From contig ASKX01000006.1 in the NCBI GenBank assembly GCA_000398025.1, forward strand, positions 14,759 through 38,758: a stretch of DNA of 24,000 nt, given 5' to 3'. This DNA comes from Candidatus Paceibacter normanii SCGC AAA255-P19 (GTDB lineage: Bacteria; Patescibacteriota; Minisyncoccia; Minisyncoccales; Paceibacteraceae). Of the stretch, positions 9,338-23,446 are shown piece by piece; the stretch's first letter is position 1; every line of letters begins with the position of its first letter. Made by a program: the position numbers and the translations under genes. The notes under the pieces were generated by a model. The model was not told the origin of the DNA, did no database searches, and saw only the letters and a list, made by a program, of their open reading frames with translations.

Positions 9338-9376
9338 CCGCTCCAACATCCAATTAGGCAGGAGCGGTTTTTCTTT
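9338..9376. terminator. terminator-like hairpin just beyond the uppS stop
   Basis: CCGCTCC (9338-9344), a 16-nt loop, GGAGCGG (9361-9367), then TTTTTCTTT on the plus strand. On the minus strand a second small hairpin and a U-rich tract follow. Confidence 0.5.
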
Positions 9377-10070
9377 AGTGGCCAAATCTCCGGCTGCGCC
9401 GGTTATATTCTTCTATTGCTTCATCTAAATCCTTTTCGGTAAAGGCTGGCCAGTATTTTTTAGGAAAATAGAGTTCAGAATAAGCCCCTTGCCAAATAAC
9501 AAAATTAGAAAGCCGCCGCTCCCCGCCTGCCCGAATAATCAAATCTGGGTCGGGCAGGCCAGCAGTAGAAAGATGCTGACTAATTAAGTCTTCAGTAATT
9601 TTTGAGGCAGGGATTTTCTTTCTAACAATCTTTTGAACTGCCTGAGTAATATCCCACCTGCCACCATAACTTATGGCTAAGTTCAATTGAAGATCTTTAT
9701 TATTTTTAGTTAAGTTCTCAATCTTAACAATGGCTTTTTGGAGGGACTTGGGCAATCTTTTTTTTTGGCCAATTATCTTTACCTTAACTTGATATTTTTG
9801 GATGTCTTTGACATGCTTTTTGTCAGAAATGCCCCTTTCCAATAATTTCATTAAATAGATCACCTCTCTTTTTGTTCTATCCCAGTTCTCAGTTGAAAAC
9901 CCAAAAGCGGTCAAAACTTTCACTCCTCTTTTTTGGCACCACTGGCAAAATTTAAGTAAATTTTTATAACCTTCCCAATGGCCTTTTAAAGTTGGCAATC
10001 CCCTTTCTTTGGCCCAGCGCCGATTACCATCGGGAAATAAAACAATATGAATTGGAATTTGTTTCTTCAT
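9375..10070 (-). CDS. uppS: undecaprenyl-diphosphate synthase (cis-prenyltransferase)
   Basis: IVLFPDGNRRWAKERG, GFSTENW and IRAGGERRLSNF motifs. I chose the start at ATG 10070 (MKKQIPIH). An in-frame alternative ATG at 10121 lies inside a hairpin-repeat copy. The ORF-track start at 10187 is unlikely. Confidence 0.9.
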   Translation of the reverse strand: MKKQIPIHIVLFPDGNRRWAKERGLPTLKGHWEGYKNLLKFCQWCQKRGVKVLTAFGFSTENWDRTKREVIYLMKLLERGISDKKHVKDIQKYQVKVKIIGQKKRLPKSLQKAIVKIENLTKNNKDLQLNLAISYGGRWDITQAVQKIVRKKIPASKITEDLISQHLSTAGLPDPDLIIRAGGERRLSNFVIWQGAYSELYFPKKYWPAFTEKDLDEAIEEYNRRSRRFGH

Positions 10071-10275
10071 AAACCAAGCTTTTATAATGTGAAAGCGAAG
10101 GTGAAGATGAAGGAACTTCATCGCCTCCCCTTTCGACTCTAATTGGCGCCTTCTCTTGCTGCCGGGCCGTAATGAAACCGGCAGCAAAAGAAAGCAAAGA
10201 GATTAAAATAACTCCAATTAGTAAAATTATATCATCTAAATGGCATTGGACAAATTCTTTAATTTTTGCTAGCAT
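10024..10275 (-). CDS. possible small membrane protein whose C-terminus is encoded by a hairpin-repeat copy
   Basis: It has an ATG start and a strongly hydrophobic helix (IILLIGVILISLLSFAAGFI). The tail GGDEVPSSSPSLSH is the repeat read in frame. It overlaps the uppS 5' end by 47 nt. This call is weakly supported. Confidence 0.3.
   Translation of the reverse strand: MLAKIKEFVQCHLDDIILLIGVILISLLSFAAGFITARQQEKAPIRVERGGDEVPSSSPSLSHYKSLVYEETNSNSYCFISRW
10091..10125 (+). repeat. hairpin-repeat family copy (GATGAA subfamily, reference copy)
   Basis: GAAAGCGAAGGTGAA, then GATGAAG / gaa / CTTCATC, then GCC. Confidence 0.75.
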
Positions 10276-13929: not shown

Positions 13930-15012
13930 TTAAATGTCTTCTTCTCTCAGTTTTTCTAATAGCTCTTTTTGTTTTTTTGTCAACCTCTTGGGGATTTTTA
14001 TTACCAACTCTACATACATGTCTCCCCGCCCATAACCCGAAAAGTGAGGAATCCCCTTTCCCGAAATCCGTAAAATCTTACCAGATTCTGTGCCGGCGGG
14101 AACTTTAAGCAAAATTTTAGTCCCAGACAAAGTAGAGGTTTCAATTTCATCTCCTAAAACTGCTTGTGAGAAAGAAACGGGAACCTTTACATGCAAATCA
14201 TCTCCTTTTCTCTTAAAAGCCGGGTGGGGCTTAACAAATATCCTTACATACAAATCTCCTGGTCTTCCTCCTCGCTTTCCGGCTTCTCCCTTCTCTTCAA
14301 TTTTTATCACTTGGTTACCGTCTACTCCAGCTGGAATAAAAATTTTAATTTTTTCCTCTCCTTTAGCTCTTCCTTCGCCCTGGCAAACATTACAAGGTTT
14401 TTCTGGCCGAAACCCTTCGCCGCCACATTCTGGACAGGTAACATAATGAGTAAAAGAGCCAAAAGGTGTTTTTTTAATTTGCTGAACTTGACCAGTTCCT
14501 CGACAGGAAAAGCATTCTTTAATGGACGTGCTTGGTTCAGCTCCAGTTCCTTGACAGCGAGAACAGATAATTGGTTTAGATAAAGAAATTTCTTTCTCTT
14601 TTCCTTGTAAAACATCTTCTAAAGAAACTTCCATTCCCACTTCAATATTTTTCCCCCGACGGAGGTCTTTTTTTCTTCGGGGAGTCCCAAAACCAAAAAT
14701 TTCTTCCATCACATCTCCCAAGTCCTCGAAGTCAAAATCAAAGCCCATCTCAGGCCTTCCCCAGGCCCATTGAAAATCAGAACCAGGATCTGCTCCTACT
14801 CCTCCTTCAAAAACTCGACCAAATCTGTCGTATTGGGATCTCTTTTCTTTGTCAGAAAGAATCTGATAAGCCTCGTTTATCTCTTTGAACTTTTTTTCAT
14901 CACCTCCTTTGTCTGGATGATGTTTATGAGCCAGCTTCCGATAGGCCTTTCTTACCTCGTCTGGGGAGGCGTCTCTAGAAATGCCTAAAATTTGATAAAA
15001 ATCCTTATTCAT
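13930..15012 (-). CDS. dnaJ: molecular chaperone DnaJ
   Basis: J-domain (DFYQILGI...HHPDK), a G/F region and four CxxCxGxG zinc-finger repeats. The start at 15012 (MNKDFY) is preferred over the ORF-track start at 15033. Confidence 0.95.
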   Translation of the reverse strand: MNKDFYQILGISRDASPDEVRKAYRKLAHKHHPDKGGDEKKFKEINEAYQILSDKEKRSQYDRFGRVFEGGVGADPGSDFQWAWGRPEMGFDFDFEDLGDVMEEIFGFGTPRRKKDLRRGKNIEVGMEVSLEDVLQGKEKEISLSKPIICSRCQGTGAEPSTSIKECFSCRGTGQVQQIKKTPFGSFTHYVTCPECGGEGFRPEKPCNVCQGEGRAKGEEKIKIFIPAGVDGNQVIKIEEKGEAGKRGGRPGDLYVRIFVKPHPAFKRKGDDLHVKVPVSFSQAVLGDEIETSTLSGTKILLKVPAGTESGKILRISGKGIPHFSGYGRGDMYVELVIKIPKRLTKKQKELLEKLREEDI

Positions 15013-15046
15013 CGAGCTTTCATTCTTTAACATTAATAATATATGC

Positions 15047-15102
15047 GAAAGCGAAGATAAAGATGAAGGGAAACCCCGCGGGGGGGGGCAAACTTCATCG
15101 CT
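15047..15102 (+). repeat. hairpin-repeat family copy with an expanded loop and a G9 tract
   Basis: GAAAGCGAAGATAAA, then GATGAAG (15062-15068), a 24-nt loop containing CCCCGCGGGG and G x9 (15080-15088), then CTTCATC (15093-15099) and GCT. Confidence 0.7.
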
Positions 15103-15105
15103 TAA

Positions 15106-16977
15106 CTATTTTTCTTTGTACTCTCCTTCTTCTGGGCCTTTCCCTTCTTCGTCTTGCGGCTTCTCTTTTTCTTGCGCCGTCTTGTATAGTTCGGCTCCTA
15201 CTTTCTGAATAGTTTGGGAGAGCTCTGAGGTTTTGCTCTTTATTTCTTCTATGTTATCGGTGTCCTTTACTTTTTTCAAGGCCTCAACCTTTTCTTCAAT
15301 TTCCTTTTTTACGTCGGGAGAAACCTTGTCTCCAGCTTCTCTTAAGGTCTTTTCAGTGGTGTAAATTAAGTTGTCAGCCATATTTTTTGTCTCAACTAAC
15401 TCTTGTTTTTTTCTATCTTCGTTAACGTGTAGCTCGGCTTCTTTTTTCATTTGTTCTACTTCCTCTTTGGAAATACCGGTAGAGGCCTCAATCCTAATCG
15501 ATTGGCTCTTGTCAGTGGCTTTATCCTTAGCTGTAACATTTAAAATACCATTGGCGTCGATATCGAAGGTTACCTCAATTTGAGGAATTCCCCGGGGAGC
15601 TGGCGGAAGACCATCTAAAATGAACTTGCCCAGGGTTTTGTTGTCAGTTGCCATTGGCCGCTCACCCTGTAAAACATGGACTTCAACAGAAGTTTGATTC
15701 TCGGCAGCCGTAGAAAATATCTGGGTTTTAGCCGTGGGAATGGTAGTGTTTTTAGGGATTAAGATAGTGTTAACTTCGCCTAAGGTTTCTATCCCCAAAG
15801 AAAGCGGGGTTACATCTAAAAGCAAAACGTCTTTTACTTCCCCTTGCATAATCCCAGCTTGAACAGCTGCTCCAATGGCCACCACTTCATCGGGATTAAT
15901 GGATCTGTTAGCTTCTTTGCCAAAAATATTTTTAATCTCAGTTTGAATTTTAGGTGTTCTGGTTTGGCCGCCAACCAAAACAACTTCATCAATATCTTTG
16001 GGCTCCAGTTTTGCTTCTTTTAAGGTTTGCTTAACTAATTCAATGGATTGGGAAATATAATCTGAAACTAAATCTTCAAGCTTGGCTCTAGTTAATTTGT
16101 AATAAAGATGTTTGGGACCAGCCGTGTCAGAAGTGATGAAGGGCAGGTTAATTTCTGTTTCCAAAGTAGTCGATAGTTCAATTTTGGCTCGCTCAGCAGC
16201 TTCCTTTAATCTTTGGAGGGCCAGTTGGTCTTTTGACAAATCAATTCCCTGATCTTTTTTGAATTCAGAAACCAGCCAGCCCATAATCCTTTGATCAAAA
16301 TCGTCACCACCCAAGTGGGTATCGCCACCAGTGGCTTTTACCTCTACCGTATCTTCAGAAACATCAAGAATAGAAATATCAAAAGTTCCACCGCCAAAAT
16401 CATAAACCACAATTTTCCTTTCGCCTTTCCTAGTTAAGCCATAAGCTAGGGCGGCGGCCGTGGGTTCATTTATCACTCTTTTTACTTCAAACCCGGCGAT
16501 TTCGCCAGCCACTTTAGTAGCTTTTCTTTGGCTGTCATCAAAGTAAGCTGGGCAGGTAATAATGGCTTCGTTAATTTTTTCTCCCAGTTTTTCTTCGGCA
16601 TCCTGTTTTAATTTCTGTAAAATCATGGCTGAAATTTCGGGGGGTGTGTGCCATTTGTCTCCCATCTTAACTTCCACTCCGCCATCTTGTCTTTCTCGAA
16701 TTTCGTAAGGTAAAAGTTTTTTATCTCGCTGGACTTCGGCATCAGAAAATCTTCTTCCCATTAGCCGCTTAATAGAATAAATAGTGTTTTGATGATTGGT
16801 AATTTGTTGCCTTCTGGCCGTAATTCCCACTAATCTTTCACTGTTTTTAGTTAAAGCCACCACCGAGGGCGTGGTTCTGGCTCCTTCTTTGTTCTCAATA
16901 ATTTTGGGCTCACCGGCTTCCACCACGGCCATGGCGGAAAAGGTAGTCCCCAAATCAATACCTAAAATCTTTGGCAT
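15106..16977 (-). CDS. dnaK: molecular chaperone DnaK (Hsp70)
   Basis: 623 aa with [17 protein letters not shown] and VLVGGQTR signatures. The stop is TAG. Confidence 0.98.
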
Positions 16978-21105: not shown

Positions 21106-22113
21106 CTAAAGGCCCCTTTTTATACTTCTGGCCTTTTCAAAACCATAAACCAACCAATACCTTCGGGAAAATGGCAAATCTTGGGTTTTAACATATTGAT
21201 AGGCCCGACCTCCAAAGCCCATCTTAAAAAGAGTTGGGCCAGCCCAGGGATGACGAGGATTCTCCCAAGGATCAACATATCCCCAAAAATCGTATAAATT
21301 ACATCCTCGTCTTTTGGCTTCTTTGATTGCTTCCCAGGAAAGCAAGTAAGGAATTGAGAATTTGGCATATTTTGAGTTGGAAGCTGCTTGGTGATAAAAA
21401 CCTATTCCCGACCAATAAATAATTAGGGCTGTGGCTGCCGTTTCTCCTTTGTATTTTCCAAACAACAATAAGGCCTGGCCATCTTTAGAGAAAACATCAA
21501 ATTCATTTTTAATATATTCGAAAGGGAAAGACACAAACTTCTGCCTTTGGGCTACTTGGGTATTAAGCTTTTGGTAAGTTTCAATGTCATCTAACATTTC
21601 GCTTTTCCCCACTGTAATGTCTTGATTTTTTAAAGCCTGACGGATTAAATAACGGGTAGTTTTTCTCATATTCATTAAAAGCTCTTCTTTTGACGGGCTA
21701 AGGTTAAGCTTCCAGGTAGCCTCGTAAGCTGAAGCATGCATTGGCGCTTCTCTAAATCCCAACTCTTTAAGGAATTTTCTATTATTTCCGTTTCTATCAA
21801 GAAGTGGAGCCATTCTAATAAAACTTGCTTTTTCTTCTTTGGCAAGTTTCTTTAACTCCTTCAATAATGCTTCCAAGCCATTTCCAACTGGTCCATGTTG
21901 GATTAACAAAAATGTTCCTCTTTTAGCAACAACTTTCGTCACTAAGGCCACCCCAACTAATTTATCGCCTTGGAATACTCCAAATCGCCAAATTTTATTT
22001 CCCATTCTTTTTTGAAATTCTCCCCAATTCCAAGACTGCAAGAAAGTTTTTTCTTCACATTCTAAAAGAAAATCTTCCCAAACATTTTTATCAGCTATTT
22101 CCTTAATCTCCAT
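21106..22113 (-). CDS. FemAB-family peptidoglycan interpeptide-bridge aminoacyltransferase
   Basis: 335 aa. FLQSWNWGEFQKRMGN and the GFYHQAASN...YLLSWEAIKEAKRRGCNLYDFWG blocks are typical of the FemA/FemB/MurM family. Confidence 0.85.
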   Translation of the reverse strand: MEIKEIADKNVWEDFLLECEEKTFLQSWNWGEFQKRMGNKIWRFGVFQGDKLVGVALVTKVVAKRGTFLLIQHGPVGNGLEALLKELKKLAKEEKASFIRMAPLLDRNGNNRKFLKELGFREAPMHASAYEATWKLNLSPSKEELLMNMRKTTRYLIRQALKNQDITVGKSEMLDDIETYQKLNTQVAQRQKFVSFPFEYIKNEFDVFSKDGQALLLFGKYKGETAATALIIYWSGIGFYHQAASNSKYAKFSIPYLLSWEAIKEAKRRGCNLYDFWGYVDPWENPRHPWAGPTLFKMGFGGRAYQYVKTQDLPFSRRYWLVYGFEKARSIKRGL

Positions 22114-23446
22114 ATGTCTTTAGAAAATTAACAACTCTTTTGGCGTCATCTTGAGAGATGTTAATGTGAGTTGGCAGGTTCAAAATGCTTTTAGCTACTT
22201 TTTCTGCTCGGGGACAACTACCCAAAAGGTATTGCATCTTCTCAATATCAGTATCTGGCGGAACCACTGGGCTTTTCCTCCAGCCATCATCCAAATAAAT
22301 TTTCCTTTTTCTGGCTGCTTTTAAAACGTCACTAGTATTAAGATTGGTTAAAACAGGATAGCGCATAAAAATCGGCTGTCTGGCGCCCCAAGGCTTAGGC
22401 GATGAACTTCGTTCATCTTCACCCTTCGCTAACGCTCGGGTAGCTAAAGGTAAATAAAAGTTTATTAGTTCTCTTTCGTAAAATTTGGCAATCTCCCTTC
22501 GGTGTTCATTAAATCTCTCTAATTTTTTAAATTGATTTAAACCTAGAATGGCTAGGGCATTGGGAAGAAATTTGGGAAAATGCTGGGGAATTTTTCCCTT
22601 TTTCTCTTTCTTATAGACTGCTTTAGAAAGAATTAAAAGTTTATGGAAAACCCCAATAATCACTCTTCCCAGGGTTGAGTTTACTCCATAAGCTGGCAGA
22701 ATTAAATAATTCATTAAAATGGGATGCCAAAGTTGCTGACAAATCCAGAAACTGGAAGGAAAAAACAACCCAGCTTGAAATCTCTTTAGCCCCTCCCCTA
22801 TTTTTTCATTATTAGTAACTGCCAGGCCGCCAAAAACCGAAGAAATTATTTTGTCTCTACCAAAACTAAAGAAAGCGACATCTCCGAAGGTACCGCAAGG
22901 TCTTCCTTCATATTTTGCTCCCAAAGAATGAGCACAATCCTCTATCAGGTATAAATTGTTCTCCCTGGCGATTTTTAAAATTTCTTCTATTTTAGCTGGC
23001 CAGCCAAAATTATGCTGTATCATTATGGCCTTTGGAGCTCGCCCTGAGTTTATCGAATGGGTAATTTTTCTTTTGAGGTCTACCGGGTCAAGATTTAAAG
23101 TATCATCAATATCCACATAAACTGGCTTAGCTCCTCTTTCTAAAATAGGATTAACAGCTGAATTGCAAGTGAAGGCCTGCAACAAAACCTCATCTCCATT
23201 TTTTATTTCCAGGGCATCCAAAATTGCCATCAAAGCTGACCTGCCGCTATTAAAAGAAATAGCATATTTTACTCCCAAATATCTTTTGAATTCTTCCTCT
23301 AATTCTACTGTCGGAGGTCGGGACTCCGAAGGTTGTTCCTTTTGCCAACGCCAAGGCTGAAAAAGTAATTTCAAAGCTAAAAAGACATCATCTTTTTCGG
23401 TATTGGGTGATAAAGATATAGAAATGGGCCGAAAGAAATTCATCAT
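22103..23446 (-). CDS. DegT/DnrJ/EryC1/StrS-family PLP-dependent aminotransferase-like protein
   Basis: FNSGRSALMAIL, EDCAHSLGA and FSFGRDKIISS (putative PLP lysine). It contains an in-frame hairpin-repeat copy (KGEDERSSSPKP). Confidence 0.85.
   Translation of the reverse strand: MMNFFRPISISLSPNTEKDDVFLALKLLFQPWRWQKEQPSESRPPTVELEEEFKRYLGVKYAISFNSGRSALMAILDALEIKNGDEVLLQAFTCNSAVNPILERGAKPVYVDIDDTLNLDPVDLKRKITHSINSGRAPKAIMIQHNFGWPAKIEEILKIARENNLYLIEDCAHSLGAKYEGRPCGTFGDVAFFSFGRDKIISSVFGGLAVTNNEKIGEGLKRFQAGLFFPSSFWICQQLWHPILMNYLILPAYGVNSTLGRVIIGVFHKLLILSKAVYKKEKKGKIPQHFPKFLPNALAILGLNQFKKLERFNEHRREIAKFYERELINFYLPLATRALAKGEDERSSSPKPWGARQPIFMRYPVLTNLNTSDVLKAARKRKIYLDDGWRKSPVVPPDTDIEKMQYLLGSCPRAEKVAKSILNLPTHINISQDDAKRVVNFLKTYGD
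22399..22435 (-). repeat. hairpin-repeat family copy, inverted, inside the aminotransferase coding sequence
   Basis: The plus strand reads GGCGATGAAC ttc GTTCATC TTCACCCTTCGCTAAC. This is near-identical to the reverse complement of 10091-10125, with a compensated G:C to C:G stem pair. Confidence 0.75.

Follow-up and report, generated by a model that had tools for sequence, protein, structure and literature searches.

A dispersed repeat of two small hairpins lies in frame within a gene for a DegT-like sugar aminotransferase of Candidatus Paceibacter normanii SCGC AAA255-P19, an ultra-small bacterium of the Candidate Phyla Radiation (CPR; Nealsonbacteria). The gene is encoded on the minus strand of a 24,000-nucleotide (nt) stretch of the draft genome (GenBank assembly GCA_000398025.1, contig ASKX01000006.1, positions 14,759 to 38,758), which is referred to here as the window. 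Comparison with related sequences identifies positions 22397-22441 as a clean in-frame 45-nt insertion of the dispersed repeat, and it is considered very probable that the segment is such a repeat, tolerated in frame within an enzyme that most likely still works.

The evidence for an insertion comes from the empty site in related genes. The open reading frame (ORF) at 22103-23446 crosses the segment without a stop codon or frameshift, with the translation reading ...PLATRALAKGEDERSSSPKPWGARQPIFMRYPVL..., and the 15 additional codons correspond to residues 336-350 of the predicted protein (TRALAKGEDERSSSP). This peptide is absent from all 11 orthologs identified in related genomes (51-71% identical by alignment), and from all 119 further homolog clusters (63-72% identity) drawn from a search of a collection of 5.8 billion proteins. 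The empty site in the homologs reads ...PLA-K(P/S)W..., the hyphen marking the junction, and the flanks of the insert rejoin as PLA-KPW, or GCT-AAG at the codon level, being collinear with the orthologs on both sides. Since TA (or CTA) borders the 45-nt insert at both ends, at 22396-22397 and 22441-22442, the junction can be placed only to within 2-3 nt. Insertion into the DegT-like gene in all likelihood postdates the split of this lineage from its sequenced congeners. An initial annotation, made from the letters of the window, had proposed that a mobile or duplicated hairpin had been absorbed into the coding sequence and that the minus-strand gene reads through it; both proposals stand, in that the 447-residue ORF is intact and the copy is a near-consensus member of a repeat family with an empty site in every ortholog and cluster compared. 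The lineage-specific insertion, and the empty site in relatives, that it expected from a homolog alignment were likewise found.

Membership of a repeat family was established with BLAST and nhmmer searches of the whole 553-kb assembly, in which the copy in the DegT gene matched copies on five other contigs with 95-98% identity over 42-44 nt. Alignment of 17 copies gave a 47-column consensus with two hairpins (Table 1). In hairpin 1, 97.5% of cells are paired and three of the seven pairs show double-sided changes, while in the outer stem of hairpin 2, where 79% of cells are paired, one pair has changed from C-G to G-C in six of the 17 copies; the resulting covariation score (0.191) is higher than in any of the 500 shuffles or any slid register. 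Conservation is stronger in the unpaired linker and inside hairpin 2 than in the stems, and the ends are conserved also, with an invariant head, AG(T/G)CGATGA, and a tail, GGGTAA. Folded as RNA in the orientation of the mRNA, the element has a predicted energy of -17.9 kcal/mol (z -2.0), and as DNA one of about -7 to -8 kcal/mol. A covariance model built from the aligned copies, with matches counted at E<=0.01, revealed 69 copies in the source genome (G000), among which the DegT copy is the third best at 72 bits. No family in Rfam matches the two-hairpin element.

Table 1 Features of the window, and further genes of the source genome that carry the repeat in frame
Feature	Position	Strand	Basis
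Inserted 15 codons (45 nt, residues 336-350, TRALAKGEDERSSSP)	22397..22441	minus	Gap in orthologs and homolog clusters
Repeat-unit core, 43 nt; family-model orientation is antisense to the gene	22398..22440	plus	Sequence; covariance-model match 22397-22443, 72.3 bits
Hairpin 1: 7-bp stem GATGAAC / GTTCATC, 3-nt loop	22401..22417	plus	Folding
Hairpin 2: outer 4-bp stem ACCC / GGGT around conserved CTTCGCT...GCTCG interior	22421..22441	plus	Folding
Gene for DegT/DnrJ/EryC1-type pyridoxal phosphate (PLP) sugar aminotransferase, 447 residues	22103..23446	minus	ORF, translation, Pfam, structure model
Intergenic family copy, ~10 nt upstream of the uppS start codon (10070)	10081..10126	minus	Covariance model, 48.8 bits
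Undecaprenyl-diphosphate synthase gene, downstream of the intergenic copy	9375..10070	minus	Pfam Prenyltransf, 276 bits
Third, more divergent family copy with hairpin 1 extended	15037..15103	minus	Covariance model (G000:C6:29795-29861), 28.2 bits, E 5e-5
In-frame hosts: polynucleotide phosphorylase (PNPase, 2 copies), topoisomerase I (TopA), seryl-tRNA synthetase (SerRS), cysteinyl-tRNA synthetase (CysRS), KsgA/RsmA			Pfam
In-frame hosts: enolase, inositol-1-phosphate synthase (C-terminal end), ribosomal protein S6 (3 tandem), SpoIIM-like			Pfam

Within the window, the initial annotation had linked the DegT segment to an intergenic copy. The plus-strand sequence that it quoted is present, although it starts one position earlier than given (GGCGATG begins at 22398, not 22399), and what was described as a single 36-nt hairpin is really a 45-nt unit with two hairpins and a 3' limit at about 22441-22443. 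The reverse complement was confirmed at 10100-10126, within the minus-strand copy at 10081-10126, and the differences listed between the two copies, namely a stem pair that is C-G in one and G-C in the other, one extra C and a divergent 3' part, are real. A 26-nt pattern in which only the compensated stem pair was left free occurs at exactly two sites in the window, against an expectation of 0.00 from 100 shuffles, and a repeat search of the window returned the pair as 27 nt with 93% complementarity. The compensated pair of the intergenic copy lies in hairpin 1, and its 3' half has decayed to an AT-rich stretch. The third copy in the window sits between minus-strand ORFs at 13930-15033 and 15106-16977.

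The family has two abundant size classes, with model matches of 47 and 50 nt that correspond to inserts of 45 and 48 nt. Model matches of 47, 50, 56, 59 and 62 nt, for which the length of the insert is divisible by three, account for 21 of the top 30 in the source genome and 76 of 116 in five other genomes. This bias rests mainly on the 47- and 50-nt subfamilies, with none evident when counted by length class, and the copies share descent; the predominance is only suggestive of selection for frame neutrality.

The consequences of the insertion for the host protein were examined with the aid of profile and structure comparisons. The protein matches PF01041 (DegT_DnrJ_EryC1) with 215 bits (E 2e-63, cut-off 19.8), its matches in the PDB are sugar aminotransferases (best E 1.6e-37), and, by the PF01041 score and the fold of the model described below, it is predicted to be a DegT/DnrJ/EryC1/StrS aminotransferase of fold type I. 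All invariant columns of a 51-sequence alignment are retained, including K199 in the FGRDK motif (FSFGRDKIISS), presumably the lysine that binds PLP in this family. An AlphaFold2 model based on 51 homologs (pTM, the predicted template modelling score, 0.81) has GDP-perosamine synthase 3bn1 as its best Foldseek match (E 6e-21, target TM-score 0.79), and retains the sugar-aminotransferase fold outside the insert. Residues 337-351 are modelled as coil with a predicted local distance difference test score (pLDDT) below 50, being one of four such segments, and stand between a long helix (residues 296-326) and the short FMRY strand. According to the model, then, the insert would form a surface loop in the C-terminal domain, between its long helix and its first strand, much as the initial annotation had supposed. 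Placement of the loop by alignment to solved structures was dropped, as only the N-terminal domain of the host protein aligns. Judged from its sequence, the host gene most likely yields a working enzyme with an extra 15-residue loop.

The favoured account of these observations is that a short non-coding two-hairpin dispersed repeat, similar in kind to repetitive extragenic palindromic (REP) sequences, to Rickettsia palindromic elements (RPEs) or to a tiny miniature inverted-repeat transposable element (MITE), became inserted into the DegT-like gene. The insert has probably survived because the inserted length is exactly 45 nt, or 15 codons, because the strand read here has a stop-free frame, because that frame would encode a hydrophilic and probably disordered peptide, and because the site is predicted to be a surface loop between the long helix of the C-terminal domain and its first strand.

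The DegT gene is not the only gene to be occupied. Copies lying wholly within ORFs of at least 150 residues number 27 of 69 (39%), such ORFs making up 87% of the genome; family copies are under-represented in reading frames, in line with a filter by selection, yet far from excluded. At least 14 in-frame copies reside in 10 genes recognised by Pfam, comprising the DegT copy and at least 13 copies in nine others (Table 1). Seven of the in-gene copies are in the sense and seven in the antisense orientation, which argues against a function at the RNA level. Sense copies encode GDE(L/A)(R/K)(S/A)SS..FA.AR and antisense copies TRA.AKGEDE(R/Q)SSS, and the prediction of the initial annotation that either orientation yields D-E..S-S is borne out by GDE(L/A)(R/K)(S/A)SS and ...GEDE(R/Q)SSS, the sense form occurring in other genes of the source genome. 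Alignment with four or five orthologs per gene, taken from two genomes of the same genus and three other carrier genomes, revealed that the copies in the genes for SerRS, enolase, TopA and PNPase are specific to the source genome. In SerRS, the congener G001 also has an insert in this region, but a different one. The enolase insert measures 48 nt, and since the enolase orthologs of the two congeners are 83-85% identical, the empty site is visible at the DNA level. In addition, the DegT gene of G001 has its own family copy about 20 codons downstream, in sense orientation and 15 codons in length (L003:2538-2584, 32 bits), which represents a second event, independent of the insertion in the source genome.

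Several further observations were made on in-gene copies. The copy in enolase (G000:C4:28004-28053, L053; residues 160-176) adds 16 residues between GG(L)H and (F)QEFM, and is missing from PDB 4g7f as well as from the two congeners. These motifs flank a catalytic loop of the enzyme, where tolerance of an insert is far less to be expected than in the DegT loop. Three tandem in-frame units with a 45-nt period occupy residues 30-75 of the ORF for ribosomal protein S6 (L055, G000:C15:8702-8838), in its N-terminal part; the best two hardly differ from one another, the third being diverged. Many copies end 0-5 nt before the ATG that opens a downstream ORF (...CTCGGTnTATGAA...), as for example at G000:C3:41342-41399, C16:8148-8202, C5:27916-27971, C3:42476-42532 and C1:33845-33892, where they occupy the usual Shine-Dalgarno position; either these genes begin further downstream, or the element supplies their 5' leader. 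Several others are located at the extreme 3' end of long ORFs with no codons left (G000:C6:14294-14338, C1:58634-58689, C6:50300-50356 and C1:25206-25250), and seem to provide the gene with its final residues and stop codon.

Inserts of other kinds are present in DegT-like genes also. The host protein has a second small lineage-restricted insert, HSINSGRA, at residues 130-137 (window 23036-23059, minus strand), which is common to only about seven homolog clusters (as HSTSSGRA plus one longer variant) and corresponds to a six-residue gap in PDB 7b0m. No clear hairpin is present in the DNA of this insert, which may be an older, decayed insertion. Two DegT homologs of Nealsonbacteria type, P0081 and P0052 (L077, gene 211-1563; L078, gene 301-1602), carry GC-rich, hairpin-forming in-frame inserts that are unrelated to the two-hairpin family and occupy further loop positions, comprising a YNPP...AP family at two positions and a TPHQNKFGT palindrome, and rare inserts (KSGLPAEALA and HPVKS...) were noted at the protein level only in others. 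To judge from these sequences, the DegT gene family appears to have been struck repeatedly by several repeat families. As to the surroundings of the host gene, Pfam matches place a Mur-ligase gene upstream and FemAB-like and FtsQ-like genes downstream, so that the DegT-like gene forms part of a cell-wall cluster; Mur ligase and FemAB neighbours are likewise found at the locus of one homolog. In the congener G001 (L003, G001:C34:4263-8573) the DegT ortholog lies inside an open frame of 939-958 residues that is seemingly stop-free from the upstream gene, and in G038 it is likewise in a long open frame, of 948 residues; a gene fusion or a read-through arrangement may be responsible.

The distribution of the family was examined in 41 related genomes of one order, of which 12 have matches and 29 have none at E<=0.01. 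Six genomes carry 40-69 copies, three of them belonging to the source genus and three to other GTDB families, and six more carry 1-7 copies. The master sequence is essentially identical across the GTDB families, including the CCC/GGG and CGC/GCG variants of hairpin 2, while the proteins of these genomes are only 55-70% identical. An exact 30-nt core was found at 16 stretches in a collection of genomes from 185,579 species; those record titles that name a lineage refer to Nealsonbacteria or Parcubacteria, and several others are generic ('uncultured Candidatus Saccharibacteria' or 'bacterium'). The patchiness and the identical master copies fit horizontal spread with bursts of activity, and a strongly constrained recognition sequence would fit them too. 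In G032, a complete genome (CP179888.1, 639,534 bp, 68 copies), 25 of the 33 best-scoring copies are located at 350-640 kb, 17 of these 25 on the plus strand, which may reflect regional clustering or a replication-strand bias.

The means by which such an element might be moved was considered next to the other explanations that the data allow. One, which is compatible with the insertion of a dispersed repeat, is that a Y1 HUH transposase, akin to those of IS200-type insertion sequences (IS) or to the REP-associated tyrosine transposases (RAYTs), moves the element, a REP-like substrate, in the form of single-stranded hairpin DNA. The source genome encodes a single Y1_Tnp (HUH) gene, of 239 residues (G000:C12:9396-10115; 37.6 bits at the genome and 36.5 bits at the protein level), with HUH (NHFHLL) and tyrosine (YINVLNP) motifs; one family copy lies 105 nt past its 3' end, and enzymes of this type typically act on hairpins that bear a conserved 5' tag (PMC3733652). 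However, at the given copy density one copy within 500 nt would be expected by chance with a frequency of about 12%, and the Y1 gene has flanking palindromes of its own, found at no other place in the genome and not related to the two-hairpin family. Nor do the two co-occur across the 41 genomes, since the rich carriers G002 (46 copies, 96% complete) and G020 (66 copies, 100% complete) show no Y1 match whereas 16 of the 29 genomes without the element have a match to it, and at the Y1 loci of G001, G028 and G032 no family copy lies directly beside the gene, the nearest being about 700 nt away. With private palindromes, no co-occurrence and no flanking copies in other carriers, RAYT/Y1 was rejected as the preferred mechanism, and we regard this route as unlikely. 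The palindromes that bracket the Y1 gene are two identical, perfect 21-nt sequences, GTGCTTAACCCGGTTAAGCAC, in the same orientation (G000:C12:9370-10170; L033:1220-2020), and gene and palindromes together look like a self-contained minimal IS200-like or 'TIRtron'-like unit. Alternatively, the repeat could be a module selected by the host, such as a structure in the mRNA or a binding site for proteins of the nucleoid, of replication or of repair, with the in-gene copies being kept for that function. A master sequence that is near-identical across GTDB families whose proteins have diverged, stronger conservation in the linker and hairpin 2 interior than in the stems, and the many copies that abut start codons would all suit such a role, but the positions differ between congeners, in-gene copies occur in both orientations, 29 of the 41 genomes have no match and neither does Rfam, and this explanation seems very unlikely.

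Other explanations concern the segment rather than the family. That it is an ancestral part of an aminotransferase subfamily, resembling the repeat by chance, has practically no probability left: nothing was found in its favour, the segment is absent from every other homolog examined, such that the ortholog alignments already refute it, and the chance expectation of 0.00 and the copies of 95-98% identity elsewhere in the genome speak against it also. Homologs that have the segment without similarity to the repeat, on which the initial annotation would have turned to this explanation, were not seen among the 11 orthologs and 119 clusters. An assembly artefact in the form of a chimeric join, or a pseudogene, might be suspected in a draft genome of 29 contigs that is 78% complete, but it is highly implausible in view of flanks collinear with those of the orthologs, an insert of exactly 15 codons, a full-length ORF with all invariant residues, and like behaviour in genomes that were assembled independently, one of them complete; a 45-nt repeat is, moreover, probably too short to mislead an assembler. 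Comparably improbable is the idea that the segment is missing from the mature protein through ribosome skipping or removal from the mRNA. Its size and hairpin content do resemble those of the bypassed elements of T4 gene 60 and of mitochondria ('byps'), and the RNA fold energy of -17.9 kcal/mol is in keeping with this, but an insert that is in frame and stop-free needs no bypass, the codons that could serve for take-off and landing are not the same (GCT versus CCT), and the take-off position is followed by neither a stop nor a rare codon.

Insertion of a dispersed repeat, tolerated in frame, remains the preferred reading, and a number of points weigh against it. A strain-level allele with the empty site was not found, the closest homolog being 72% identical, and hence the recency of the event and its exact junction rest on comparison between species; single scans of metagenome contigs for the empty and for the occupied junction gave no match. 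The activity of the enzyme and the translation of the insert peptide are deduced from sequence. The element is presumed to be selfish and mobile, but no transposase could be linked to it in searches for Y1_Tnp, DDE_3 and GIY-YIG domains, and the identical master sequences across families could reflect a conserved host function as opposed to selfish spread. With regard to the latter two domains, neither GIY-YIG nor IS630-type DDE (DDE_3) domains were found in the source genome, these and Y1_Tnp being the only ones searched for, in a genome that is 78% complete. A bolder proposal is that the family is adapted to life inside the genes of a gene-dense, reduced genome and is spread horizontally by a non-RAYT, as yet undescribed mobilising activity. 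The 45- and 48-nt classes, the one stop-free frame on each strand, coding for a hydrophilic, disordered peptide, and the master sequence shared across Nealsonbacteria families would imply such spread; the proposal is offered tentatively, as a possibility that is at present more readily doubted than accepted.

CPR genomes are tiny and streamlined, and are generally considered poor in repetitive or selfish DNA. In the source genome, a 45-nt element reaches dozens of copies per 0.55 Mb and lies, in at least translatable form, within genes for cell-wall, glycolytic, translation and DNA-topology functions. The practical message for the DegT-like enzyme is that it is probably intact and carries a lineage-specific disordered loop. 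More generally, the family accounts for many unexplained short insertions in CPR protein alignments, and such inserts should be anticipated in pipelines for annotation and phylogenomics. The copies can also be regarded as natural loop-insertion experiments, indicating which sites in essential enzymes tolerate 15-20 extra residues, and they pose a mechanistic question, in that none of the three domains searched for could be linked to the element. If the family is indeed adapted to genes, it would provide a steady supply of new surface loops in essential CPR proteins, including in catalytic loops such as that of enolase.

Among known systems, the byps of yeast mitochondria and the insert of T4 gene 60 are frame-interrupting sequences that are passed by ribosome hopping. 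The DegT insert is similar in being a short hairpin-rich insert in a coding sequence, but differs in that it is in frame and stop-free, whereas those inserts break the frame and need the ribosome to hop. MITEs (Correia, ERIC, BOX, RUP and others; PMC10969869) share with the CPR element a non-autonomous, structured and dispersed nature and the capacity for in-frame fusion with host ORFs. Typical of MITEs are terminal inverted repeats, a target-site duplication of fixed length and a related autonomous IS; the ends of the CPR element share at most TA..CGA. Possible duplications of 2-3 nt are TA (possibly CTA) for the DegT insert and TTT for the enolase insert, where the ancestral sequences are inferred or diverged; the flanks of other family copies show no consistent target-site duplication. 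A parent IS with the same ends was not found in the source genome, with the same three domains searched and the same completeness.

The likeness to REPs and to REP doublets forming hairpins (REPINs) lies in the form of the repeat, a short hairpin of 20-60 nt in which a conserved tag, itself unpaired, stands beside a covarying stem, and in its occurrence as single, tandem and inverted-pair copies, some of them intragenic, and patchily among relatives. REPs are palindromes tagged with GTAG or CGTC, and intragenic examples are known (PMC3733652). Conversely, the CPR element has no conserved GTAG/CGTC tag, its 5' tag being AG(T/G)CGATGA and the GTAG in the DegT copy being accidental by the 17-copy alignment; no RAYT association was found for it; and a much higher share of its copies (27/69) lies within reading frames. 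It is not counted among the REPs. In the literature, no relevant paper was found that links palindromic, REP or MITE elements with CPR, Patescibacteria or Parcubacteria, and the family is apparently unpublished for CPR, although the kind, RPE- or REP-like, is already known.

RPEs are palindromic sequences inserted in frame in many housekeeping genes (PMC10969869). They measure about 100-150 bp, are found in Rickettsia and fall into families RPE-1 to RPE-10, whereas the CPR unit inserts 45-60 nt, with two small hairpins, and its exact 30-nt core is found only in genomes of Nealsonbacteria/Parcubacteria type; three times shorter, and set apart by unit size and by the genomes that carry it, it is not a member of the RPEs. 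The likeness is nonetheless extensive, in that both are dispersed palindromic repeats of a small, gene-dense genome, often inserted in frame in unrelated housekeeping genes as lineage-specific copies, and read through as an extra peptide that is compatible with the fold of the host protein.

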